Shown piece by piece: positions 6,978 through 54,857 of a DNA stretch of 64,000 nt. Source of the stretch: Candidatus Cloacimonadota bacterium (GTDB taxonomy: Bacteria; Cloacimonadota; Cloacimonadia; Cloacimonadales; TCS61); assembly GCA_021157525.1 (NCBI GenBank), contig JAGGWK010000060.1:11293-75292 (forward strand), written 5' to 3'. A program made the translations under genes and the position numbers. Under the pieces are notes generated by a model that was not told the origin of the DNA, ran no database searches, and worked only from the letters and a program-made list of their open reading frames with translations. Positions within the stretch are counted from its first letter, which is position 1; each line of letters starts with the position of its first letter.

Positions 6978-8765
6978 ATGAAGCAACGAATCATCATTCT
7001 TTGGATACTGCTCCTTGCCTGCTCAGTAGCCTTTGGCGCCGAGCTGGAGGTACAGTCATACGTCGATCGCACCACTGTGGGTTTAGATGATTATCTGAAA
7101 TTCACCGTAGAAGTTACAGGATCTAAAGCGAACAAAGCTTCCATTCCCAGCCTCAGCGGTCTGAAGGGATTTCGGAATCTTGGCGCCTCCACATCGTCAT
7201 CATCCAGCTACTCGGTGGTAAATGGCAAAATGACATCCAGTGTTTCCGCCAGTACCACCTTCACATTACAACCTCTGGCTACGGGAGAGCAGATTTTACC
7301 GCCGGTGAGTGTGCAATTCAAAGGCAAAACCTACACCACCAAACCAATTCGCATCAAGGTAAAGGAAGGGAGCACAGAACCGGCTCCACCGGTTTCTCAG
7401 CAGATGCAGCAAAGGGGAAGCACCCATCAATCCTCGGATAAGTTAGCAGATAATATGTTCATTATCGCCGATGTTTCACAAAAATCGGTGTATAAATCTC
7501 AGCCCATCACGGTAGATTTTTACCTCTATACCAAGTATGATGTGCGCAATCTTTCTTTTGGTGAAGAGTCTTCTTACAGCGGTTTTTGGAAGGAAATCAC
7601 CTATACTCCCGACCATATTAATTTCCGCCGCACCACCTATGATGGCCAACTTTTCAATGTGATGCGGCTGCGCAGTATTACCCTGCTTCCCACCCGCAGT
7701 GGAGAACTATCCATTCCTCCTCTGGAGATGCTGATAGATGTAACCGTGCCAGCCCGCAGTTTCTTTGATTTTGGCTCCACCAAACGTTACACCATCCGCA
7801 GTAAAAAAATTCCTATAAAAGTGCGGGACATCCCTCTGGAAGGAAGACCGGAAAGCTACAGCGGCGCAGTGGGTTCGTTCACCATAAAAAGTGAAATCAG
7901 TGATACTCAAGTGAAATCCGGGGAATCCCTTACCTATACCATCACCATATCGGGTAGTGGAAATTTCAGCAATATCGAGCCGCCGGCTATGCCGGATGTT
8001 AATCATCTGCGCTTTGTTGAGCCGGAAATAACCAACGACGTTTCCAGCGGAGGCGTGAAGGGTAGCAAAGTCATCCGTTCTCTGGTGATTCCGGAAGAGC
8101 AGGGAACCTACACCATCCCAGCCCTGAGTTTTGCCTATTTCGATCCTCAGCAAAAAGCCTATAAAGTTCTCAAAACTGCTACTCACACCATCAATGTGGA
8201 CAAGGGTGAAACCCTCTACATCCCATCAGCCGGAGCTCAAAACGTGGTTCACATAGAAGGCGCAGACATCGGTTTTATTCAGATTCCCGACACGGTAACG
8301 TCTTTTCATCTTTACTTTGATGCAGCAGGATTCTGGCTCATCTGGCTTATTTTGGCTCTGTGCATTCCGGCAGCTGTGATCTTTGCAAAAGAGCAGGAAA
8401 AATTGCGTGGAAACCTGCATTATCAGCGGAAGCGCCTGGCTACACGCATCCTGAAGAAATACCTGAGACAGGCCACCGAATACGCACAAAACAAAGACAG
8501 AGCCTTTTACACCGCCGCTCAAACCGGACTTCTTACCTACCTTGCCGATGTGTTACACATAGCCCGCGGCAGTACCGCAGACGCAGTTTTGCTTGAGCTG
8601 AAAAGCCGTATCGATTCAGCAACGCTGTATCAGCGCACCAGTAGCATGATAGAGCGTTGCAACCAGGCGCGCTTCATGCCGGGAGGCTTTGCCAGCGAAA
8701 ACATCCCTCGGGATTTTGAATTGCTGAAGGAAATCATGGCCGACATCGCCAAACTGAAATTGTGA
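6978..8765 (+). CDS. batD: BatD-like oxygen-tolerance protein
   Basis: It has a signal peptide, a large extracytoplasmic region, a late TM (FWLIWLILALCIPAAVIF) and a cytoplasmic tail. Its position after batC fits BatD, and GAGGAAATC lies before ATG 6978. Confidence 0.8.
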   Translation: MKQRIIILWILLLACSVAFGAELEVQSYVDRTTVGLDDYLKFTVEVTGSKANKASIPSLSGLKGFRNLGASTSSSSSYSVVNGKMTSSVSASTTFTLQPLATGEQILPPVSVQFKGKTYTTKPIRIKVKEGSTEPAPPVSQQMQQRGSTHQSSDKLADNMFIIADVSQKSVYKSQPITVDFYLYTKYDVRNLSFGEESSYSGFWKEITYTPDHINFRRTTYDGQLFNVMRLRSITLLPTRSGELSIPPLEMLIDVTVPARSFFDFGSTKRYTIRSKKIPIKVRDIPLEGRPESYSGAVGSFTIKSEISDTQVKSGESLTYTITISGSGNFSNIEPPAMPDVNHLRFVEPEITNDVSSGGVKGSKVIRSLVIPEEQGTYTIPALSFAYFDPQQKAYKVLKTATHTINVDKGETLYIPSAGAQNVVHIEGADIGFIQIPDTVTSFHLYFDAAGFWLIWLILALCIPAAVIFAKEQEKLRGNLHYQRKRLATRILKKYLRQATEYAQNKDRAFYTAAQTGLLTYLADVLHIARGSTADAVLLELKSRIDSATLYQRTSSMIERCNQARFMPGGFASENIPRDFELLKEIMADIAKLKL

Positions 8766-23945: not shown

Positions 23946-24033
23946 GCAGAAGTGGTGGAATTGGCAGACACGCAAGACTAAGGATCTTGTGCCCCTATCG
24001 GGTGTGCGGGTTCAAGTCCCGCCTTCTGTACCA
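23946..24033 (+). tRNA. tRNA-Leu; the anticodon loop CTAAGGA reads as anticodon AAG
   Basis: Hand-folded cloverleaf: acceptor GCAGAAG/CTTCTGT, anticodon stem CAAGA/TCTTG, long variable arm, T-arm GCGGG-TTCAAGT-CCCGC. CCA is encoded. Confidence 0.85.
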
Positions 24034-30645: not shown

Positions 30646-30719
30646 TGGTTGGGCTAGAAGGAGTTGAACCCTCACATACGGAACCAGAATCCGCTGTACT
30701 ACCATTATACTATAGCCCA
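30646..30719 (-). tRNA. tRNA-Gln (anticodon CTG)
   Basis: Hand fold: acceptor TGGGCTA/TAGCCCA (U1-A72 as in bacterial tRNA-Gln), anticodon loop TTCTGGT, T-loop TTCAACT. CCA is encoded. Confidence 0.85.
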
Positions 30720-30727
30720 GAGAAACA

Positions 30728-30802
30728 TGGTTGGGCCGGGAGGATTCGAACCCCCGCATACATGGACCAAAACCATGTGTCTTACCACTTGACGACGGCC
30801 CA
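30728..30802 (-). tRNA. tRNA-Gln (anticodon TTG)
   Basis: Hand fold: acceptor TGGGCCG/CGGCCCA, anticodon stem CATGG/CCATG with loop TTTTGGT, T-loop TTCGAAT. CCA is encoded. Confidence 0.85.
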
Positions 30803-30825
30803 ACAAAACTTCTCAAAAATATAGC

Positions 30826-30916
<91 letters not shown>

Positions 30917-30933
30917 AAAATAGCAAAGATCAA

Positions 30934-31019
30934 TGGCGGAGGATGAGGGACTCGAACCCCCAAGGGCATAGCCCGGCGGTTTTCAAGACCGCTGCCTTAC
31001 CAATTAGGACTAATCCTCC
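30934..31019 (-). tRNA. tRNA-Ser (anticodon TGA)
   Basis: Hand fold: acceptor GGAGGAT/ATCCTCC, anticodon stem GCGGT/ACCGC with loop CTTGAAA, long variable arm. CCA is encoded. Confidence 0.85.
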
Positions 31020-37012: not shown

Positions 37013-37016
37013 AAGC

Positions 37017-37038
37017 AGTTTCATGATATCATGAAACT
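37017..37038. repeat. perfect 22-nt palindrome AGTTTCATGAT|ATCATGAAACT
   Basis: Read directly from the sequence, 5 nt after the exbD stop. No U-tract follows, so it is either a weak terminator hairpin or a dimeric protein-binding site. Confidence 0.7.
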
Positions 37039-37081
37039 ATATCGAGACAGGAAAACGGTGTGAACGTGACTTTAAAAATGT

Positions 37082-37301
37082 AAAAAAGGGGCCGTCCCGC
37101 AACCGCAAAACTGAGACCTCTACTCTCCATGCCTGCGGCAGGTCGCCGCACAAGTCCGCTTCCGTCTTCGTTCATTGTAACACATGAACTACGACGCGAA
37201 AAGACGATCCGATGTGACAGCGACTTGGAGAGAGGCTCAAAACGAAGATTTCAATCTCGAATCTCGATTTTCTTGTTCTTCTCTCGGTTGTGGGACGACC
37301 C
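37082..37301 (-). ncRNA. unclassified structured RNA-like element, copy 1 (paralog of 52684-52893)
   Basis: A 17-bp closing helix pairs 37088-37105 with 37285-37301. It shares invariant blocks with copy 2 (20-nt ctgagacctctactctccat, 13-nt gtgacagcgactt) and has inner hairpins with compensatory differences. A T6 run follows on the minus strand. The strand call is tentative. Confidence 0.6.
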
Positions 37302-37312
37302 TTATATTAATC

Positions 37313-38290
37313 CTATTTAAATTCCCAGACGAAGGGATCCGGGCTATTGAATACAAAACGTTTCAGATAGGAAATCATGGTGTGGAGATCATAACCTGCA
37401 GGCACCACAAAGTAATCGTATTTGGCGACGAGAGCGGCAAATTCGGCATTTTCCATGAGGGCTGCATCGACGAAATAGATACCATGGCCAGGAAGGCTTA
37501 AGTCGGATGCATCCGTTGGCTCCACCTGACGATACAACACAACGTCCTGCTCTTTCAGCAGCTCTTCTTTGAGATGAGAAAAGTATTGGCCGTTGGATGG
37601 AGTAGCCAACACCACCAGTTGCTGCCCTGGTCGGAAGACATCAATGAGACGCTGTTGTTCCTCTGGAGCACTGGTGTCGGAAAGACCTGCCAGACCCCGC
37701 ACACCGCTCACGATAAACCATAGGGCAATAAGCACCGAGGCGATGCGTCCGATGAGTTTCAGCTCTTTTACTTTACTGAAAAAACCCACAAATCCCATGG
37801 GAACGAGGTATAATGTGGTGCCCAGAAAAAAGCCGAAAAAGAGGGTTGCGCCGTTTATGGGCCCCCCGAGATTCACCGCTTTTGAGAGAGCAATAAGAAA
37901 GGATGGACAGAAATTTACTCCCGTGAGCACCCCCAGCAAAAAAGCGCTTTTGGTGATGTTTGCCATCTTCGGAATGTGACATTTTTTTGCTTTTTGATGG
38001 GATCGTACTGCGGTGAGCAGCAGATACAATGAGAGTAAAATATAGGCAATGGATGTGAAAAACGTTCGGTTGATTTCGGTGATATTTTTGCCCAGATAGC
38101 CAGCGACAGCACCAAACGCCAAGTAGGTAAAGAAGCGGCCCAGAGAAATTTCCATTACCGCAAGGAAGGTTTTACCCACTTTTTTGTCATCGCTCAGGAG
38201 ATAGGGCAGGTAAATGGGTGAGCAGGTTGCCAGACACACCACCCCCGTGGCCAGTCCTAAACCCCAGCCTTCGATCAAACTTTGTATCAT
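37313..38290 (-). CDS. DsbD_2/CcdA-type polytopic membrane protein with a ~110-aa C-terminal soluble extension
   Basis: It has six predicted TMs. Cys lie in TM1 (VCLATCSPIYLP) and TM4 (VNFCPSF), as in thiol-disulfide electron-transfer membrane proteins. It is the last gene of the ferredoxin/FN3 operon. Confidence 0.65.
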   Translation of the reverse strand: MIQSLIEGWGLGLATGVVCLATCSPIYLPYLLSDDKKVGKTFLAVMEISLGRFFTYLAFGAVAGYLGKNITEINRTFFTSIAYILLSLYLLLTAVRSHQKAKKCHIPKMANITKSAFLLGVLTGVNFCPSFLIALSKAVNLGGPINGATLFFGFFLGTTLYLVPMGFVGFFSKVKELKLIGRIASVLIALWFIVSGVRGLAGLSDTSAPEEQQRLIDVFRPGQQLVVLATPSNGQYFSHLKEELLKEQDVVLYRQVEPTDASDLSLPGHGIYFVDAALMENAEFAALVAKYDYFVVPAGYDLHTMISYLKRFVFNSPDPFVWEFK

Positions 38291-39938: not shown

Positions 39939-42416
39939 TTAATATTCTACTACTTTCAGTTTTATGGCATTTCGCGGACACCAGCTCACGCAATCACCGC
40001 AGGCTACACAAGCATCGGGATCGATGGTGGCATAGGAGCCGTGGTCAGTGATGGCATCTTCAGGACAGTGACTTACACAGTGGCCGCAGCCATTACAGGG
40101 GGGACGGTTTATCTGGTACACCAGTTTTCCGGCCGGAGAATTTGAGATTTCCGACGTATTCCCATTGTCGTCGGTGGTACGGATGGCGAAGTAGATAACT
40201 TCGCCAGAGTTCAGGCCATTCACGTCGCAGGTTTGTGATGATCCGCCAGCCAGTGGAGCCGGGGGATTGCTGAAGATATTGGCATCATCCCAGTTTGCAT
40301 CGGTGATGGGTTCATCCCAGTACCGGATGTCGTAAATCAGGGCTGTGCCGGTGGTTCCATCATCGCCGGGTGCCGTCCAGCTGATGCGGATAGTGCTGGC
40401 ATTGATTGCCAAACCGGCGACGACAGCCAAATCTGAGATGGTGGCCGGTGGCGTGGTATCTTCGGTAAGCTGGGCGATGGCAATGTTCGAGATGGCCGCC
40501 GCATTGTTATTTTCGTCATAGGCCTTGATGGCAAAATAGTAGTCCATTCCCATGGAGAGACCGGTTACCTGGTAGGTTTCGGCAGAGCCGGATGGAGCCG
40601 GAGCAGGTAGATTGGGCAACAGGTCGGCAGTTTCCCAGTTTGCCTCGGTAATCAGTGCGTTGGATGAGCGAATCTGGTAATGATCGGCAAGGCCGTCCAA
40701 TCCGTCATCTCCCACAGCGCTCCAGCTGAGGGTAATAAAAGAGTCACCTGATTCTGCCGCCAGATCGCCGATAGTGGCGGGTGGTGTAGTATCCTCCAGC
40801 AAGGTGGCAGAGGCATTGTTTGATGCTTCGGAGGTATTTTGAGAATCGTCGGTAGCTCTGATGGCAAAGTAGTACTGGATGCCAGGTTGTGGCACATCGG
40901 TAAGATAGCTTTGCACCGTGCCGGCCACTTGGGGTGCGGGTGGGTTTGGTAATGTGGTGGCATCCTGCCAGTTTGCAGTGGTAATCTGGTTTTCCGAGAT
41001 TTTTATCTCGTAGGAAACCGCCGTTCCTTCATCGCCGTCATCACCGGGAGCTGTCCAATTCAGAGTCATATCGTTCTGGGATGCCGTTACCGCCAGATCA
41101 CTGATAACAGCCGGAGGAACGGTATCGGGGATTTCGGTAGTTTCGCCGGATGGCACGTTGCTCAGGGACGATGCGTTCAGGGCGTCATCCAGTGCGATGA
41201 TGGCAAAATAGTAGGTAGTAAGGGGTTGCAATCCTTCTATCAAAAGTGCTTCGGTAGTGCCGGCTGTCTGAGGTACCATGTTTTGGGGGTAGGCTTCCAG
41301 TGCAGCCCAGTTGTCTGGTGTGATGACCTCGGTATCCACTTTGATGATGTAGGCCGATGCGGTTCCGATATTCTGGTCGTCACCCACAGCGGTCCAGTTC
41401 AGCAGGATGCTGTTCACCGATAGCGAGGCAACAGCCAGGTCGTCAATCGGTGCCGGCGCCATGATATCCCCGATGATCTGAGCCTGTACAACATTGGAGA
41501 TGGCGGCGTAATTGAGGGCATCATCGTAGGCGCGGATGGCAAAATAGTAGTTTTGCTGCAAAGGCAGATCGCTGATGATGAGGGTTTCGGCATCTCCTGC
41601 AGCAGCGGGAACCAGAGACTGGCTGTAGGTGGATGCATCCGGCCAATTGTCTGAAGTGATTTCCTGGGTGCTGTAGCGAATATCATAGCCGGCGGCAAGG
41701 CCTTCCATGGCATCGTCACCTACCGCTGTCCATCCCAGAGTGATGGTGGCTTCGGCAGAAGTTGCCGTAAGGTCTGTGATCTCTGCCGGAGCTGTGGCAT
41801 CGATGATCTCTCCAGCCACCAGGACCTGGCACACCGAGGTGCCGCTGGAGTGGTTCACCTCGTCGAAGGCTTCCAGTTCCACTGATATCTGGGCATTTTG
41901 GGGAAGATCCCGAATAATCCAGTTTTCTTCAAACCCGGCAGGAGAAGGTAGCGGAAGGATAAAATTGTAGGCAATGGGATTGTTCAACGTGTCCCGCAAT
42001 GTAAGGCCATATCGGAAGGAGTTGCCAGATGTTCCGTCATCTCCGGTAGCCACAAACTGTATCTGCACCACGCCGATGGAATCTGAAACGACGGAAAAAG
42101 AATCGATGGCGGCAGGAGCAACGACATCCGGGGTGGTGGTAAAGGCGTCTTCCGGACACTGAAATTGGTCAACACAGCGCATGCACTGTACGCATGCATC
42201 CTGATCGATATAAACGGTAAAGGTGCGGGGATCTTTTTTTATGGCGTCATAGGGACAGGAAAAGTCATCCAGACATTCGTAGCAACCCACGCATCGGGAG
42301 AACTCTACCCGAACCGGTTGTGAATCCGGCCCGACTTTCCGGGCATCATCACTACAGCTGATAACAGTAAAGAAAACAATGACTATCGCTACAACTAACA
42401 AAAAACTCTTATTCAT
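39939..42416 (-). CDS. 825-aa lipoprotein: N-terminal ferredoxin-like Cys domain, six FN3-like repeats, C-terminal 2x[4Fe-4S] ferredoxin domain
   Basis: The start is ATG 42416 (GAGGA RBS; the listed upstream start is TTG). It has lipobox VIS|C and N-terminal CVGCYECLDDFSCP and CVQCMRCVDQFQCP. Six repeats carry W(T/S)A.GDD...Y.IRY...YYFAI. The C-terminus has CNGCGHCVSHCP and CVACGDCVSWCP. Confidence 0.8.
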   Translation of the reverse strand: MNKSFLLVVAIVIVFFTVISCSDDARKVGPDSQPVRVEFSRCVGCYECLDDFSCPYDAIKKDPRTFTVYIDQDACVQCMRCVDQFQCPEDAFTTTPDVVAPAAIDSFSVVSDSIGVVQIQFVATGDDGTSGNSFRYGLTLRDTLNNPIAYNFILPLPSPAGFEENWIIRDLPQNAQISVELEAFDEVNHSSGTSVCQVLVAGEIIDATAPAEITDLTATSAEATITLGWTAVGDDAMEGLAAGYDIRYSTQEITSDNWPDASTYSQSLVPAAAGDAETLIISDLPLQQNYYFAIRAYDDALNYAAISNVVQAQIIGDIMAPAPIDDLAVASLSVNSILLNWTAVGDDQNIGTASAYIIKVDTEVITPDNWAALEAYPQNMVPQTAGTTEALLIEGLQPLTTYYFAIIALDDALNASSLSNVPSGETTEIPDTVPPAVISDLAVTASQNDMTLNWTAPGDDGDEGTAVSYEIKISENQITTANWQDATTLPNPPAPQVAGTVQSYLTDVPQPGIQYYFAIRATDDSQNTSEASNNASATLLEDTTPPATIGDLAAESGDSFITLSWSAVGDDGLDGLADHYQIRSSNALITEANWETADLLPNLPAPAPSGSAETYQVTGLSMGMDYYFAIKAYDENNNAAAISNIAIAQLTEDTTPPATISDLAVVAGLAINASTIRISWTAPGDDGTTGTALIYDIRYWDEPITDANWDDANIFSNPPAPLAGGSSQTCDVNGLNSGEVIYFAIRTTDDNGNTSEISNSPAGKLVYQINRPPCNGCGHCVSHCPEDAITDHGSYATIDPDACVACGDCVSWCPRNAIKLKVVEY
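40122..42131 (-). repeat. tandem array of six ~111-codon FN3-like coding repeats
   Basis: The DNA motif GATGGC(A/G)AA(A/G)TAG(T/A)(A/T) (antisense of YYFAI/IYFAI) starts at 40182, 40527, 40860, 41199 and 41534, a period of 333-345 bp. The first repeat is divergent. Confidence 0.8.
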
Positions 42417-42770
42417 ACACCATCCTCTTTTTGCTATCAAACCAACATTCAGGTAACCAGAGAGGTGTCAAATGCAAAATTTCCGGTAAATCCGGAATAC
42501 ATACTTATGCAAGATGCCTGGAGAGGGGAACAAAGTATTTTCGTAAAAAATCTTAGATCCGGATAAAGAGTGTATTATTCACGCCACTGCTTTGTATTCA
42601 CCCGAATCCCGCTTCCAGAGCAGAGATCAATTATTTCTTGAAACGTTAGGAAGAGGTTTTGGACAAAACATAGCCTCCATTGGTAGCCCGTCCAGATCAT
42701 CCAGCCAGAGGCGATATCATGCTATTTAAGTAGATATTAACACCAGAATCCCCTTTTAGCTATCCAGAAG

Positions 42771-44493: not shown

Positions 44494-46881
44494 ATGGAAA
44501 AAGAAAAGAACCTTCCAAAAATCGAGGAAAAAACAACCTCTGACATCATGGTCATGTCTGATATTCTTCCTCCCCATCTGACCATTATTCCCATCAATCA
44601 CCGCCCGATATTTCCGGGATTTATGATCCCTCTCACCTTCAGTGGACGGCGGGTAGTCAAAAAGCTACAGGAAGTCTTTGACTCTGACCCTAAGGTAATC
44701 GGCCTGGTACTGATAAAGGAACTGGATGAGACCGATTTCTTCAAGTCTCCGTTGCACGATGTGGGCACTGTCATCAAAATCTACAAACTCAATGTCATCG
44801 ATGAATTTACCGTCCAGATTATCGCCCAGGGATTGCAACGCTTCCGGCACGCCCACACACTGGCATCCCGCCCTCTTCCTCATTGGAAAGTCACGTACCT
44901 TGTTAACCCCACAGAGAAACCGACCGGGGAGCTGAAAGCCTACACCCTTTCTTTGATGAATTCCATGAAGGATCTGCTGAAGCTTAACCCGATATTTCAG
45001 GAACAATTAAAGCTGGTGATTCAGCATATTTCTCACGACAATCCGGGCCTGTTGATGGATATGGTGGCATCAATGCTTAACGCAGATCAGGAAAAATTAC
45101 AGCAATTACTCGAGACCACCGAGCTCATTCCCCGGGCAGAATTGCTCTTGATTTTGCTGCGTGAAGAGATCGAGCTAACTGCGCTGCAGGAGCAGATTGA
45201 GAAGAAAATCGAGGAAAAAGTTTCAAAGCAGCAACGAGAGTTTTTTTTGCGGGAACAGCTGAAAATCATCAAGAAAGAGCTGGGACTGGAGAAAGACGAC
45301 AAAGCAGCCGAATTGGAAAAATTTCAGAATCGAATTATGGATCTGCAGCTGTCTCAAGAGGCGGCCAAGGTTGTAAAGGAAGAGATGGAGAAGCTGGCAA
45401 TGCTGGAGCCGGCATCGCCAGAATTCAATGTCACCCGCAGTTATCTCACCACCATCACCGAGCTTCCCTGGGGAAAATATTCACCGGACAATCTGAATAT
45501 TGCCCAAGCCCGTGCCATTCTGGATCAAGATCATTATGGGCTTCAGGATGTAAAACGGTTGATCCTGGAATTTATCGGAACCATCATCAAACGTGGGACT
45601 GTAACCGGTTCTATCCTCTGTTTTGTCGGGCCTCCGGGGGTAGGTAAAACTTCCCTCGGAAAATCCATTGCCAGAGCATTGGGACGAAAATTTTTCCGCT
45701 TTTCCGTGGGAGGAATGCGGGATGAAGCAGAGATAAAAGGACACCGCAGAACCTATATCGGTGCGATGCCCGGCAAGATTCTGCAGAGCCTCAAACGTAC
45801 CGGCACTGCCAATCCTGTGATAATGCTGGATGAGATCGACAAGCTGGGAAAGAGTTTTATGGGTGATCCGGCCTCTGCTCTACTGGAAGTGCTGGATCCC
45901 GAACAAAACCGGGATTTCCTCGACCACTACCTGGACATCCGCTTCGACCTCTCAAAAGTGCTTTTCATCACCACAGCCAACCAACTGGACACCATCCCCC
46001 GGCCACTGCTGGACAGGATGGAGATCATTTCGCTGTCGGGATACATCATGGAAGAAAAGGTGAAAATAGCCAAGCGACACCTCGTTCCACGGCAACGAGA
46101 AGCTCATGGATTGAAGGCATCTGAGGTAAAAATCAGCACACCAGCTCTCCGGCAGATTGTAGAAAATTATGCCCGGGAAGCAGGGGTACGCAATCTGGAA
46201 AAAATGATCCGCAAGATCATGCGCCAAGTTACTTTGTTACAGGCAGAAGGAGCCAAGGAACATTTTTCCATCACGGTAAAAAGCCTTACCCGCTACCTGG
46301 GAAACCCCCGTTTTGCCACCGAGAAATTGTATCAACGTGCCATCCCTGGTGTTACCCTGGGTCTGGCCTGGACGTCTTTTGGCGGCACCACACTATACAT
46401 CGAAGCCTCCGCTCTCAAGGGCAAGCCCGGATTTCAGCAAACCGGCCAGCTGGGAGCGGTGATGAAGGAATCGGCAGAAATAGCCTATTCCTACGTCCGT
46501 TCAATCTTATGCAGAGATGAACACTATTGTTCCTTCTTCAATGAGAATTTTATCCATCTTCACGTGCCAGCTGGTGCTACCCCAAAAGATGGGCCATCGG
46601 CTGGAATCACTATGGCTTTGGCACTGTATTCTCTGGCAAAAGCCACACCGGTACGTAAGGGAGTGGCCATGACAGGTGAATTGACCCTGACAGGAAAAGT
46701 ACTCCCCATCGGTGGGCTGAAAGAGAAAACCATTGCCGCCCGCCGCGTTGGCATCAGAGAATTGATTTTCCCCATCGATAATCGACCTCAGTTTGAGGAA
46801 TTACCACATGTTATCAAAGACGGCATCACTCCGCATTTCGTCGATTACTTTGAGGATGTAATAAAAATTGCCTTCGCTTGA
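44494..46881 (+). CDS. lon: ATP-dependent Lon protease (LonA)
   Basis: It has a LON N-domain, AAA+ Walker A (GPPGVGKTS), Walker B (MLDEIDK) and the protease motif PKDGPSAG. Confidence 0.95.
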   Translation: MEKEKNLPKIEEKTTSDIMVMSDILPPHLTIIPINHRPIFPGFMIPLTFSGRRVVKKLQEVFDSDPKVIGLVLIKELDETDFFKSPLHDVGTVIKIYKLNVIDEFTVQIIAQGLQRFRHAHTLASRPLPHWKVTYLVNPTEKPTGELKAYTLSLMNSMKDLLKLNPIFQEQLKLVIQHISHDNPGLLMDMVASMLNADQEKLQQLLETTELIPRAELLLILLREEIELTALQEQIEKKIEEKVSKQQREFFLREQLKIIKKELGLEKDDKAAELEKFQNRIMDLQLSQEAAKVVKEEMEKLAMLEPASPEFNVTRSYLTTITELPWGKYSPDNLNIAQARAILDQDHYGLQDVKRLILEFIGTIIKRGTVTGSILCFVGPPGVGKTSLGKSIARALGRKFFRFSVGGMRDEAEIKGHRRTYIGAMPGKILQSLKRTGTANPVIMLDEIDKLGKSFMGDPASALLEVLDPEQNRDFLDHYLDIRFDLSKVLFITTANQLDTIPRPLLDRMEIISLSGYIMEEKVKIAKRHLVPRQREAHGLKASEVKISTPALRQIVENYAREAGVRNLEKMIRKIMRQVTLLQAEGAKEHFSITVKSLTRYLGNPRFATEKLYQRAIPGVTLGLAWTSFGGTTLYIEASALKGKPGFQQTGQLGAVMKESAEIAYSYVRSILCRDEHYCSFFNENFIHLHVPAGATPKDGPSAGITMALALYSLAKATPVRKGVAMTGELTLTGKVLPIGGLKEKTIAARRVGIRELIFPIDNRPQFEELPHVIKDGITPHFVDYFEDVIKIAFA

Positions 46882-46887
46882 TTAATT

Positions 46888-46935
46888 TCCATCCCGCATT
46901 ATTATCACTGTTAATGCGGGATGGACTTCTTTATC
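46888..46935 (+). terminator. probable terminator after lon
   Basis: A perfect 14-bp stem (TCCATCCCGCATTA / TAATGCGGGATGGA) has a 10-nt loop and is followed by CTTCTTTATC, a modest U-tract. Confidence 0.5.
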
Positions 46936-48138: not shown

Positions 48139-48216
48139 TGGGGTGGCTGAGGGGATTCGAACCCCCGACTCCAAGAGCCACAATCTTGTACTCTAACCAA
48201 CTGAGCTACAGCCACC
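48139..48216 (-). tRNA. tRNA-His (anticodon GTG) with an encoded G-1
   Basis: Hand fold: an extra 5' G opposite C73, acceptor GTGGCTG/CAGCCAC, anticodon stem CAAGA/TCTTG with loop TTGTGGC. CCA is encoded. Confidence 0.85.
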
Positions 48217-48229
48217 ATAAAATTACTTA

Positions 48230-48306
48230 TGGTACGCCAGCGGGGACTCGAACCCCAGACCTACGGATTAGAAATCCGTTGCTCTATCCAGCTGAGCTAC
48301 TGGCGC
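48230..48306 (-). tRNA. tRNA-Arg (anticodon TCT)
   Basis: Hand fold: acceptor GCGCCAG/CTGGCGT, anticodon stem ACGGA/TCCGT with loop TTTCTAA. CCA is encoded. Confidence 0.85.
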
Positions 48307-48315
48307 ATAAAAAAA

Positions 48316-48392
48316 TGGTAGCGGCGCAGGGACTTGAACCCCGGACACTCGGATTATGATTCCGATGCTCTAACCAACTGAGCTACGCCGCC
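48316..48392 (-). tRNA. tRNA with anticodon CAT (elongator Met, or Ile2 if lysidine-modified)
   Basis: Hand fold: acceptor GGCGGCG/CGCCGCT, anticodon stem TCGGA/TCCGA with loop ATCATAA. It lacks the 3 G-C initiator signature. CCA is encoded. Confidence 0.8.
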
Positions 48393-48406
48393 ACTCATTA
48401 AAAAAA

Positions 48407-48483
<77 letters not shown>

Positions 48484-50919: not shown

Positions 50920-51007
50920 ATTTTCATTTTTTTTTACTTTGCACTTGACCTCTTACCCTCACCTTAACAATCTATGCGTCATATTTAAATTATCTATGGG
51001 AGGAGAG

Positions 51008-52669
51008 ATGGCTTTAATGACCATGAAAGAGATGTATAGTCGCGTAGATTCAGCAATTACGCAACATCAGGATGTAAAGAATAACATACCCCGTACTGAA
51101 ATGATACGTGATGCTGTGGCTAATGGAGAAGCTCTGCCGGCGGCAAATGGTGCCCTCGCTACCTGGACACCTCCAGAATCTACCGGACGGAGCCCAAAAG
51201 ATACAATCACCGTAAAACACCCGGACTCATACCACAATATCGACTGGGATTCACCTAATAATTTGCCCCTGGAACCTTCTACCTTTGATATGCTGTTTGA
51301 AGACGCCCTGACCCTGATCAATAACAAAAAGACCCTTTACATCACAGACAGAGTGGTGGGAGCCGATTCCTCCTATGCCCTGCCTACTCGCGTCATTACC
51401 GATTGCGCACTCACCGCACTTTTCACAGATAATATGTTCCGTCCCGTACCCGAAGATATCGAAAGCAGCTGCTTCGCAGATAAACCTTTCACACTGATGG
51501 TTTTCCCCTATAATAAACTTCAGCGGGACCGCTACAAAGGCCTTCTGCGCACCATGCCAGATGGTCAAACATCCAACATGGCTGTTGCAATGGACTTCGA
51601 TCGCCGCATGGGTATTATCATCGGCTCCGCCTATGGTGGTAGCGTGAAAAAACTGATGTTCACCGTTATGAACTACTATCTGCCATTGATAGGCATCCTT
51701 CCTTTGCACTGTTCGGCAAATGAAGGCAAAGACGGCGACTCTGCTCTGCTTCTGGGCTTATCGGGAACCGGGAAAACCACTCTCTCTGCAGATCCAAATC
51801 GCGCCCTGCTGGGTGACGATGAGCATGGCTGGAGCAACGAAGGTATCGCCAACTTTGAAAACGGCTGCTATGCCAAACTGATCAACCTCAGTGTCCAAAA
51901 AGAACCGGAAATTTACAAAGCCGTCTTCCACGATGATGACTACCTCAAACATGGTTCCATCATAGAAAACTGCATGATGTACCCCAACGGACATTTTGAT
52001 CTGGATGATGAACGCCTGACACCAAATTCCCGTGGCTCATACCCCCTTACCTTCCTCAGCAATATCAAGCCATCATCAAAATCGGGACATCCCACGACCA
52101 TCCTCTTCCTCACTGCAGATGCAAATGCGGTAGTGCCTCCGGTATCCAAACTCACCGCACCCCAGGCAATGTTGTGGTTCCTCATGGGCTACACCAGTAA
52201 ATTGGCTGGCACCGAAACCGGCATCGTAGAGCCGGTATCAACCTTCTCGCGCTTCTTTGGTCAGCCTTTTATGCCCTGCAATCCAAACAGATATGCCACG
52301 ATGCTGGGAGAGAAAATGAAGGAACACGGCACCAACGTCTATCTGGTAAATACCGGATGGAGCGGAGGCCCCTACGGCGTGGGCTCACGTATGGATATCA
52401 ACCTTACTCGCAGCCTGGTAAATGCCGCCCTTACCGGAGAACTGGAAAAAGTAGATTACCGCGAGGATACGCTGTTGCACATCATGGTACCTACCTCCTG
52501 CCCAGGAGTGGATGCCACTATCCTGAACCCCAGAAACACCTGGGAAGACAAAGCTGCTTTTGATGCTCGCGCACAAAAACTGGCTCAAGACTTCAGTGAT
52601 TATTTCGACAAAGCCTACGGCAATAAAGAGCTGGATCCCGCTATTGTAGCTCAATGCCCGGGAAAATAG
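51008..52669 (+). CDS. pckA: phosphoenolpyruvate carboxykinase (ATP)
   Basis: It has the kinase-1a P-loop GLSGTGKTTLS and LLGDDEHGW. I moved the start to ATG 51008 (GGAGGAGAG RBS). Confidence 0.92.
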   Translation: MALMTMKEMYSRVDSAITQHQDVKNNIPRTEMIRDAVANGEALPAANGALATWTPPESTGRSPKDTITVKHPDSYHNIDWDSPNNLPLEPSTFDMLFEDALTLINNKKTLYITDRVVGADSSYALPTRVITDCALTALFTDNMFRPVPEDIESSCFADKPFTLMVFPYNKLQRDRYKGLLRTMPDGQTSNMAVAMDFDRRMGIIIGSAYGGSVKKLMFTVMNYYLPLIGILPLHCSANEGKDGDSALLLGLSGTGKTTLSADPNRALLGDDEHGWSNEGIANFENGCYAKLINLSVQKEPEIYKAVFHDDDYLKHGSIIENCMMYPNGHFDLDDERLTPNSRGSYPLTFLSNIKPSSKSGHPTTILFLTADANAVVPPVSKLTAPQAMLWFLMGYTSKLAGTETGIVEPVSTFSRFFGQPFMPCNPNRYATMLGEKMKEHGTNVYLVNTGWSGGPYGVGSRMDINLTRSLVNAALTGELEKVDYREDTLLHIMVPTSCPGVDATILNPRNTWEDKAAFDARAQKLAQDFSDYFDKAYGNKELDPAIVAQCPGK

Positions 52670-52683
52670 GCAATACATCTATG

Positions 52684-52893
52684 AAAAAGGCCATCCCACA
52701 ACCGAAAAGCTGAGACCTCTACTCTCCATTCCTCAACGGAAGGTCGCCGTGCAAGTCCACTACGGTCCCGGCTTCTACGGCTAAAGCCGATACGCCGCGA
52801 CACAGCGGGGTGACAGCGACTTAGAAGTGGCGGCTTAAAACGGAAATTTGAATTTCTGCTTTTTTGCTTCTCTCTCGGTTATAGGATGGCTCC
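52684..52893 (-). ncRNA. unclassified structured RNA-like element, copy 2 (paralog of 37082-37301)
   Basis: A closing helix pairs 52689-52704 with 52876-52891. It has the same invariant blocks (52710-52729, 52810-52822), and its hairpins covary with copy 1. A T5 run follows on the minus strand. It lies between pckA and marR. Confidence 0.6.
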
Positions 52894-53073
52894 TTTTTCT
52901 CTATGCTGAAATTCAATCCCATCTTCACTCCTTCTGGGTATCTGAAAAGCAGTAAATTTATGCGTAATCTTCCCCTAAAACGGTGTAATGACACCGGGCA
53001 GAAGACATTTTCTTTGACACAGCATCCCACCCTTCAAAGTGTTGCGCATGCAACAAAAAGGTGAGGGATAACA

Positions 53074-53517
53074 ATGTGGAGAGACAAAGCTGTAGCCTAC
53101 TGGATAAATCTGATTTCTCAGACATCCAGGACCCATATCGATCGGGAACTTGCTCCCCTTAAACTCAGCTCGGGAGCCTGCAATATCCTGATGGTGCTGT
53201 TTCGCCAAAATGGCATGTCTCAGCGGGATCTCTGCCGGATACTGCTGGTGCACAAGGCAAACATCACCAGGGCATTGCAGAAGCTTGAAAAGCAGGGATT
53301 TGTTCGCCGCAAACCAGACCCCTCCGACAGTCGCACCTACCGCATTTACCTTACGAACAAAGCCCATGACCAGCGAAGCAACATCAAGGAGCAACTCAGG
53401 GCCTGGGATATCCATCTGCGGGAATCACTACTGCCCCGGGAACAGGAAGAATTACTTCGATTACTCCGCAAGATTGCCAAATATCTGCATCCATCCAAAG
53501 CCGGTGACGCCTTATGA
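53074..53517 (+). CDS. MarR family transcriptional regulator
   Basis: It has a winged HTH (MSQRDLCRILLVHKANITRALQKLEKQGFVRRKPDPSDSRTYRIYLT) and a GAGGGA RBS. Confidence 0.88.
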   Translation: MWRDKAVAYWINLISQTSRTHIDRELAPLKLSSGACNILMVLFRQNGMSQRDLCRILLVHKANITRALQKLEKQGFVRRKPDPSDSRTYRIYLTNKAHDQRSNIKEQLRAWDIHLRESLLPREQEELLRLLRKIAKYLHPSKAGDAL

Positions 53518-54857
53518 GCCAAAAGCCCATACTGGCAGATACCAATATTCCCCGGCTTCTGATTAAACTCTCGGCTCCGGCCACGGTAGGGATGGCTGTG
53601 ATGGCCCTTTACAACGTGGTTGATACAATTTTCGTCAGTCGCGGCATAGGCTCTCTGGCCATCGCTGGCATTGCCATTGTGTTTCCTATTCACCTCATGA
53701 TGCTGGCTCTTGGTCAGCTTATAGGGATGGGAACCGCATCGCTGATTTCCCGCAGTTTAGGAGCCGGAGATACGCAAAAAGCCCACTACGCTTTCGGCAA
53801 TGCCATGGTGTGCATCGGAATCATTGGTGCCATCATCACCGCACTGAGCTATATTTTTATGGATAATCTACTGGTACTCTTTGGCGCTACCGAAGCCATC
53901 CTGCCTTACGCCCGCCAATACCTGGGCATCATTGTGGGAAACACCACCGGTTTCATGTTTATCATCACCAGCAACAACATCATCCGCTCCGAAGGCCACG
54001 CCCGCACAGCCATGAAACTTATGATGAATTCCGCCATCATCAACATCATCTTGGACCCTATTTTCATCTTCGGCTTTCATCTGGGCATCCAGGGAGCCGC
54101 CATCGCCACTGTTATCGCCCAACTCACCACGGCCGTGAGAGCCATCATCTTTTTCCAGTCAGGCGTGAGCATCCTGCACATCAAGCTCCGTTATTTCAGG
54201 ATGCAGTGGCGTATCATCAGCGAAGTAATGGCAGTGGGGAGCTCGTCCTTTATCCGCCAGATCGCCGGCAGCATCGTAGTGATAGCGATAAACAAAGCTC
54301 TGGCCTGTTATGGAGATGACCTCTACATCGCAGCCTACGGCGTAATCAATCGACTGATGAGCTTTGCCATCATGCCAATTTCCGGTATTGCTCAGGGGAT
54401 GCAGCCTATCATCGGCTTCAACTATGGTGCTGGCCGTAACGAGCTGGTGAAGAAAACCATTCGCCTGGCAATGATGCTTGCAACTCTTTTTTCCTGCGTG
54501 AGTTTTGTTGTGTTCTACTTTTTCCCGCAACTGCTGTTCCGCATCTTTACCGATGATCAACAACTCATCGCCCGGGGTATTCCCTCCATCAAGCTTCTCA
54601 TTTTGGCAGGACCGATTATCGGGTTTCATATTATCGGGACGGTGGTATTTCAGTCCCTGGGAAAAGCCTTCCCCTCCCTGATGCTCTCACTGTCGCGACA
54701 GATTATCTTTCTCATTCCCATATTGCTGCTGTTGCCCCGAGCTATCGGGATGCCGGGGGTATGGCTTGCCTTTCCTCTGTCGGATTTTTTGGCAGCCATC
54801 GTTACCCTTATTCTCATTATCCCACTCTTCCGGCATCAATTGAACAGCGGGGAATAG
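53514..54857 (+). CDS. MATE family efflux transporter
   Basis: It has 12 TMs and the typical N-terminus (RLLIKLSAPATVGMAVMALYNVVDTIFVSR). It has an ATGA overlap with marR. Confidence 0.88.
   Translation: MSQKPILADTNIPRLLIKLSAPATVGMAVMALYNVVDTIFVSRGIGSLAIAGIAIVFPIHLMMLALGQLIGMGTASLISRSLGAGDTQKAHYAFGNAMVCIGIIGAIITALSYIFMDNLLVLFGATEAILPYARQYLGIIVGNTTGFMFIITSNNIIRSEGHARTAMKLMMNSAIINIILDPIFIFGFHLGIQGAAIATVIAQLTTAVRAIIFFQSGVSILHIKLRYFRMQWRIISEVMAVGSSSFIRQIAGSIVVIAINKALACYGDDLYIAAYGVINRLMSFAIMPISGIAQGMQPIIGFNYGAGRNELVKKTIRLAMMLATLFSCVSFVVFYFFPQLLFRIFTDDQQLIARGIPSIKLLILAGPIIGFHIIGTVVFQSLGKAFPSLMLSLSRQIIFLIPILLLLPRAIGMPGVWLAFPLSDFLAAIVTLILIIPLFRHQLNSGE

Follow-up and report, generated by a model that had tools for sequence, protein, structure and literature searches.

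A repeated structured element at gene ends in one species of Cloacimonadota: a candidate minus-strand RNA module

The locus and the anatomy of the element

Copy 2 of the element occupies positions 52684-52898 of the window (the whole stretch of 64,000 nucleotides that was analysed), as folded on the minus strand and counted with its flanking A5 and U5 runs. It lies between pckA (50996-52669, plus strand), which converges on the 3' end of copy 2 and has its stop codon 15 nt before the A-tract, and a marR-MATE operon (53074-54857, plus strand), which is divergent from the minus-strand element and has the marR ATG at 53074, ~180 nt away. Between the pckA stop codon and copy 2, there is no further terminator. 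The proteins encoded in the window, including PckA, place the DNA in the Cloacimonadota, and an identical pckA is present on the MAG GCA_053985355.1.

Copy 2 is closed by a helix, P1, the plus-strand arms of which are GGCCATCCCACAACCG (52689-52704) and CGGTTATAGGATGGCT (52876-52891) with 16 paired positions. On the plus strand, this helix contains the C-A oppositions C52697/A52883 and C52699/A52881, both of which become G-U pairs on the minus strand. AAAAA at 52684-52688 is a U5 tail on the minus strand while TTTTT at 52894-52898 is a plus-strand T run, i.e. on the minus strand A5 marks the 5' side of copy 2 and U5 the 3' side. The helix, the two oppositions, the T5 runs and the distances to pckA and marR are all as described in the initial annotation. 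From pairing across the copies, the 5' arm of P1 in copy 2 is GGAGCCAUCCUAUAACCG (52876-52893, minus strand) and the 3' arm, followed by the U run, is CGGUUGUGGGAUGGCCUU (52687-52704, minus strand). Elsewhere in the window, an ordinary terminator with a 14-bp stem (46889-46924, plus strand) follows the ORF 44494-46881, and at 9 of 10 bases its stem, CCATCCCGCATTAT/TTAATGCGGGATGG, agrees with the outer part of P1; this terminator may be a precursor of the element, a relic of it or a chance match, ~4 such matches being expected in the window.

Inside P1, the predicted fold of copy 2 on the minus strand contains an A/U-rich hairpin, P2 (52837-52863), which on the plus strand is a hairpin followed by U6 and is terminator-like for pckA. 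Alignment and folding define a 13-nt block, AAGUCGCUGUCAC (52810-52822, minus strand), that is common to copies 1 and 2 and that forms the 5' strand of helix P4 in fold A with ACGGCGAC as its partner. A variable arm, P5 (52757-52808, minus strand), keeps a GUA/GAA internal loop in copies 1 and 2, although the two copies have dissimilar sequences in the stems next to it and in the terminal hairpin. Finally, a conserved 3' domain (52713-52758, minus strand), present in all three copies, forms the irregular hairpin GGACUU...AGGUCU in fold B. It overlaps a 20-nt block, AUGGAGAGUAGAGGUCUCAG (52710-52729, minus strand), that is identical in copies 1 and 2 and of which positions 3-20 are also identical in copy 3 of the reference strain. 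The exact 20-mer, CTGAGACCTCTACTCTCCAT, occurs at 37111 and 52710, and 0 matches are expected by chance (100 shuffles).

Copy 1 (37082-37301, minus strand) has a mean column identity of 80% to copy 2 along the whole element and shares with it the exact 20-mer and the exact 13-mer, in agreement with the initial proposal that the two have the same architecture. In a repeat search of the whole window, this pair was the sole dispersed non-tRNA repeat. The tRNA genes of the window form two four-gene clusters (30649-31019 and 48142-48483, minus strand) and one single gene (23946-24030, plus strand), and a 39-nt motif occurs four times at a spacing of 333-339 nt at 40504-41550 within the 833-aa ORF 39939-42440, which encodes a repeat-domain protein. 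On the minus strand, copy 1 starts 13 nt past the stop codon of the gene for a DsbD_2-family membrane protein (37313-38290, minus strand), which lies directly upstream on the same strand, and ends in U6, with exbD converging from the other side. Between the exbD stop codon and copy 1 lies a perfect palindrome, CAGTTTCATGATATCATGAAACTG (37016-37039), which on the minus strand is followed by CTTTTAT and forms a second terminator-like site ~50 nt past the U6 of copy 1.

A third copy was found at 8003-8200 of the metagenome contig L044, between yitT and dsbD, an unrelated third context. It is alignable with copies 1 and 2 only in the closing helix and the 3' ~70 nt. The YitT protein of this contig is encoded on contig JBMXKN010000055.1 of the MAG GCA_053985355.1.

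Three features are found in the whole family, the units of which are about 205-215 nt long: P1, with 17-18 bp and A and T tracts alongside; a 3' region of ~70 nt with 87-92% identity, containing GGACUU, the small hairpin UGCC-GCA-GGCA, a purine-rich block and CAGYUUUK; and GAGA right behind the 5' arm of P1. The 5' domain of ~130 nt is variable: P2, the 13-nt block and P5 with its GUA/GAA loop are common to copies 1 and 2, while copy 3 has a 130-nt 5' domain that aligns with neither and folds as four different hairpins. We refer to the strand bearing GGAGAGUAGAGG, which is the minus strand of the window, as the sense strand. Past P1, there is a U6 run on the sense strand of copy 1, a U5 run on both strands of copy 2 and, in copy 3, a U4 run on the antisense strand only. 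Homology between the copies ends at the closing helix or within about 25 nt of P1. The end of homology near the closing helix and the unrelated context of the third copy support the earlier suggestion that the element is an autonomous unit rather than a gene-specific terminator.

Base pairing, strand and variation among strains

Copy 2 has a predicted folding energy of -94.6 kcal/mol on the minus strand (z = -6.75 relative to shuffled sequences) and of -77 kcal/mol on the plus strand (z = -3.9); for copy 1, the corresponding energies are -93.1 and -83.8 kcal/mol. In all three copies, the sense strand folds better by 9-18 kcal/mol with z-scores that are equal or better, and folding with DNA parameters gave a strand bias in the same direction that was weaker.

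P1 comprises 18 pairs over the copies, with 93% of cells paired and three pairs with compensatory double changes, and its score collapses once the partners are slid by at least one column. For P1 and the 3' domain together, 91% of cells are paired compared with 40-48% with slid partners, and four pairs are double-changed, three of them in P1; these pair counts derive from eight distinct sequences that represent three paralogues of one species. On the sense strand, eight P1 columns have a G-U pair in at least one copy and three have A-C. Moreover, the tip of the 3' domain changes from UGCC/GGCA to UUCC/GGAA in copy 2, and the tandem G-A pairs CGAC/GGAG of copies 1 and 2 are replaced by the Watson-Crick pairs CUCC/GGAG in copy 3, which led us to reject a k-turn in the 3' domain. 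One hairpin of copy 3 holds three G-U pairs on the sense strand, and the internal loops are purine-rich on the sense strand and pyrimidine-rich on the plus strand. Among strains, five SNPs in helices are C to U changes giving G-U on the sense strand and one is a G to A change, a bias that is suggestive only (p = 0.1, roughly). The energies, the excess of G-U over A-C columns, the compensatory changes, the SNPs among strains and the G-U pairs and purine-rich loops of the sense strand all point the same way; altogether, they favour the minus strand of the window as the structured strand on which base pairing is maintained, and they place the minus-strand orientation, put forward tentatively in the initial annotation, on firmer ground. 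Because the two arms of P1 co-vary within each copy and pairing is strand-asymmetric, selection appears to act on an RNA or on a single-stranded fold.

The interior fold is not uniform among the copies. In copies 1 and 2, fold A, with the conserved block paired to the 5' domain, is favoured by 11-13 kcal/mol over fold B, with a 3' domain that folds on itself; for copy 3, only fold B is possible.

The copies are present in about 15 independent assemblies and are therefore not an assembly artefact. In copy 1, a 48-nt segment (37150-37197, minus strand) is deleted in two other samples of the species at a GCG microhomology, whereby P5 and GGACUUG are lost and fold A is kept. In copy 3 of three samples, GG is changed to AA within the 20-nt block, which then reads ...GUAGAAAUCUC...; thus, the block described at the outset as invariant is so between copies 1 and 2 but not in copy 3 of some strains. 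A further strain variant of copy 3 has a single C to A change that breaks a pair, and copy 2 has six variable sites, one of which has three alleles. The deletion and the pair-breaking variants indicate that constraint on the element is partial.

Distribution and genomic context

At the gathering threshold, Rfam 15, which includes 6S RNA, Y RNA, HEARO/omega RNA, riboswitches and ribozymes, matched only tRNAs in the window and nothing over the element; at an E-value of up to 10, there was still no match over copy 1 or copy 2. For copy 3, the only match was to M23 at 16.7 bits, relative to a cut-off of 41.2, with E = 1.7, which is meaningless. We conclude that the element belongs to no RNA family described in Rfam 15. 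Similarly, our search of the literature on Cloacimonadota RNA motifs or sRNAs found nothing relevant.

An exact 17-mer of the conserved block had four matches in GTDB (one genome per species), all by chance, and in IMG/VR a 16-mer, a 24-mer with degenerate positions and a two-block pattern gave chance matches or none. BLAST in distant mode detected no similar DNA in the phage and plasmid collections. Among metagenome contigs, an exact 16-mer was found in 87 stretches, two of which are real: L097, identical to copy 2, and L044, with copy 3. Both come from one sample that carries this species, which is the sole sample with true matches in the scanned collection. With L044 from the same sample as L097 and its yitT on the same MAG, all known copies come from one species. 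Exact-word scans miss diverged relatives, and the GG to AA variant demonstrates that the scanned word is not invariant; the absence of the element elsewhere is therefore weak evidence. Exactly three copies are present in the ~98 kb of the genome that was examined, made up of the window, a further ~15 kb past its ends and 19 kb surrounding copy 3; in the latter two regions, nhmmer detected no further copy. In the same genome, 16 nt within a Por_Secre_tail gene (L108, 907-922) are identical to the 3' end of copy 1 (TTTTGCGGTTGCGG...), in a setting that is otherwise unrelated to the element.

Read on the sense strand, all three copies run towards a convergent gene and meet its 3' end (pckA, exbD and yitT), and on the plus strand a gene ends 15-73 nt upstream of each copy. 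Upstream on the sense strand, the neighbours are the divergent marR for copy 2 and dsbD for copy 3, each at about 170-180 nt, and for copy 1 the co-directional dsbD_2, 13 nt away. A scan for the sigma-70 consensus upstream on the sense strand found nothing, and this consensus may not be that of the host phylum. No upstream motif is common to all three copies; copies 1 and 2 share a weak GAATTT stretch 15-17 nt before P1. The motif nTTTG(A), which may correspond to a Bacteroidota-like -7 promoter box, recurs upstream of the tRNA clusters, rplU, pckA and marR, and TAnnTTTG is not enriched overall.

Relatives with 71-85% protein identity lack the element at all three orthologous positions and have short hairpin-plus-T-run terminators there. 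These canonical terminators directly follow pckA (L012), dsbD_2 (L102) and yitT (L122-124); the nearest relatives by protein identity are at 85% for PckA (the next at ~74%), 75% for DsbD_2 and 71% for YitT. Moreover, the gene order past each of the three sites differs from that of the relatives. Since ordinary terminators occupy these sites in relatives, termination is probably among the roles of the element.

Some further observations concern these flanks. The 11-mer TTTTCATAGAT right after the pckA stop codon of the 85% relative (L012, 1747-1757) recurs in inverted form at 52677-52687 of the window, right next to the element, with E = 0.011 in this small comparison. In the related Cloacimonadota with 71% YitT identity, a non-coding block of ~190 nt is conserved past the yitT terminator (L122 4985-5175, L123 2949-3135, and L124), on contigs that share the block and have different downstream genes; it is a separate intergenic module without homology to the element. 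Genes of the DsbD family adjoin two of the three copies, i.e. copy 1 (37313-38290, DsbD_2) and copy 3 (L108 9608-11257, a DsbD_TM-thioredoxin fusion), and both sit in clusters of thiol-redox and ferredoxin genes. We do not take this as a link between the element and DsbD because the two genes are not oriented alike relative to the copies and genes of this type are frequent in these genomes; the association may be a coincidence.

Candidate explanations

Several known classes were considered and rejected. A riboswitch or leader is not supported because the minus strand faces convergent 3' ends in all three copies, and a plus-strand downstream gene is present in only two of three, 170-180 nt off. 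A retron msr-msd is disfavoured by the absence of an adjacent RT, the neighbours being pckA, marR-MATE, exbD, dsbD_2, yitT and dsbD. For a type I toxin-antitoxin, no small hydrophobic ORF is conserved: plus-strand frames are at most 10 aa long, and an AUG in the conserved block that opens frames of 36 aa in copy 1 and 16 aa in copy 2 is AGG in copy 3. The hallmarks of integron attC sites are outermost R'' (RYYYAAC) and R' (GTTRRRY) boxes, a length of 57-141 bp and a cassette array; in the element, AAC/GTT lies at the inner and not the outer end of P1, the unit, at ~210 bp, is longer and is not part of a cassette array. A DGR template/variable repeat was discarded since the copies do not differ specifically at adenines. 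Finally, 6S RNA was dismissed because Rfam gives no signal, conservation does not extend to the 5' half and relatives lack the element.

The element is best filed under structured intergenic repeats or sRNA paralogues, and we tentatively prefer, as the best of several possible explanations, that it is a young, species-restricted, duplicated structured-RNA module that is transcribed from the minus strand, with a closing helix that, together with its A/U tracts, is also a two-way terminator. The copies would have arisen by duplication within a single Cloacimonadota species. For copies 2 and 3, the minus-strand transcript may start from a promoter in the spacer of about 170-180 nt that is common with the divergent marR or dsbD, and as the flanking genes of these copies lie on the other strand, the minus-strand call would imply an independently transcribed RNA there. 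Copy 1 would instead be transcribed as the last part of the dsbD_2 operon. The transcript of the module would end at P1 and the U tract; given that A and T tracts flank P1, this helix may also stop transcription of the convergent pckA, yitT and exbD, so that the module would have assumed the role of the local terminator. With its 5' and 3' ends paired, the RNA would be stable and would present the purine-rich, SD-like 3' domain GGAGAGUAGAGG, which would more probably serve for binding, as a platform, than as a seed for base pairing.

Bidirectional intrinsic terminators resemble the element in having a G+C-rich helix set between an A tract and a T tract, directly past stop codons, and P1 with the U run past a stop codon is what an intrinsic terminator would contain; however, in the element the 'loop' closed by P1 is a conserved, structured insert of ~170 nt, the unit as a whole recurs at three unrelated loci, and copy 3 lacks a T tract on one side.

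Some observations run counter to the minus-strand module. Upstream of the three copies, we recognise no conserved promoter. Copy 3 lacks a U run after P1 on the sense strand and has one on the opposite strand, and in all three copies a gene reads into the antisense strand, making a role on that strand possible. Moreover, the deletion in copy 1 takes out a conserved block, and strains carry the pair-breaking GG to AA and C to A changes in copy 3. The copies also differ in their interior fold, and all of the statistics draw on three paralogues of one species.

A mobile repeat with terminators as its target sites is the main rival. In this explanation, which we consider unlikely, the element is low-copy, non-autonomous MITE-like DNA, closest to YPAL/RU-2 or ERIC, that inserts at or beside dyad-symmetric terminators; P1 would be its terminal inverted repeats, and the RNA structure and terminator activity would be by-products. 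The 17-18-bp helix that ends all three copies is indeed a MITE-type feature and bounds the homology between copies. Other observations in line with insertion are the restriction to one species with plain terminators at the orthologous sites of relatives, the indel polymorphism among strains and the gene order at all three sites, which is unlike that of relatives. YPAL/RU-2 and ERIC/IRU are enterobacterial intergenic MITE-like repeats of 127-168 bp, the transcripts of which form long stable stem-loops; they are co-transcribed with neighbouring genes, and the effects of ERIC on mRNA depend on its orientation (PMC2229807). The YPAL of Yersinia is 168 bp long, is not A+T-rich and targets dyad symmetry or adjacent sequence (PMC2229807). 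Like these repeats, the element is bounded by an inverted repeat and lies at terminator positions; unlike them, it lacks TA termini and a TSD, has been seen in three copies, has co-varying arms and a one-strand pairing bias, and has a multi-branched interior with a conserved 3' domain rather than a single long hairpin, and there is no sequence similarity.

Three observations argue against mobility. Direct repeats in the flanks are at most 6 nt long in two copies (p = 0.17 and p = 0.06) and are lacking in the other, i.e. they are no longer than expected by chance, and they lie at inconsistent distances from the element; the arms of P1 co-vary in each copy and have no single consensus; and pairing is strand-asymmetric. 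In addition, only three copies lie in the ~98 kb examined and the two metagenome matches come from one sample, none of the listed genes near the copies in these ~98 kb encodes a transposase, an RT or a Cas-like protein, and no empty site was found at the element loci in about 15 assemblies. The outcomes that the initial annotation had named as making the element ordinary, i.e. a known family or scattered copies with TSDs, were not observed: Rfam 15 contains no such family, no TSD is significant and the exact-word scans of GTDB and the metagenome contigs give no sign of a high copy number.

Trans-acting base-pairing sRNA paralogues, with AUGGAGAGUAGAGGUCUCAGYUUU as a seed for mRNA leaders or for the pyrimidine-rich 3' end of 16S rRNA, are an explanation that we regard as improbable. 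Multi-copy sRNA paralogue families are known, e.g. Sib/QUAD, Qrr and OmrA/B, with 2-5 dispersed copies of about 100-200 nt that have a conserved and a variable segment and a terminator end, and in these features the element resembles them; unlike them, it has no conserved promoter, no toxin ORF on the opposite strand and no detectable target in the window, and is confined to one species. A seed would account for the persistence of the conserved block even though its intramolecular partner differs by copy, and the block contains the SD-like GGAG and GAGG; the low copy number and the terminator-like 3' end of two of the three copies also fit. However, complementarity of the block to mRNA leaders, a check suggested in the initial annotation, gave no significant site: the best duplex with the -60 to +30 regions of 57 crude gene starts of the window had an energy of -27.4 kcal/mol, which was matched by 11% of shuffled seeds, and the complement of the block has no other occurrence in the window. 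Moreover, the block is paired in every predicted fold, and strains tolerate the GG to AA change inside it.

A cis element on the plus strand, serving as a long 3'-UTR or terminator of pckA, yitT or exbD or as a leader of marR-MATE or dsbD, with an incidental minus-strand bias, is in our assessment quite improbable. The gene ends 15-73 nt upstream of all three copies, the U-rich sequence that follows P1 on the plus strand in each, and the internal hairpin with U6 in copy 2 are compatible with it; by contrast, the plus-strand fold is weaker in every copy, P1 then contains C-A mismatches, the internal loops are pyrimidine-rich, copy 1 has no downstream plus-strand gene, and marR has its own promoter-like TTTG box ~60 nt before its ATG, downstream of the element.

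Lastly, and by analogy with guide or adaptor RNAs, it is highly improbable, though conceivable, that the element is the first representative of a novel class of modular structured RNAs, in which P1 and the 3' domain would be a scaffold for an exchangeable 5' domain of ~130 nt and a putative protein partner, and of which diverged Cloacimonadota relatives would be invisible to exact-word scans.

Returning to the minus-strand RNA module, its general importance is limited by the narrow range, with three copies in one species, and by the tolerance to deletion. The Cloacimonadota are an uncultured phylum that is common in anaerobic digesters. If the minus-strand RNA is real, it would be the first structured ncRNA candidate specific to this phylum, none having been found in the literature searched, and it would provide a clear case of a structured module that has replaced the terminator of several unrelated genes. 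As such, it would be informative about evolutionary transitions among intergenic repeats, terminators and small RNA genes.
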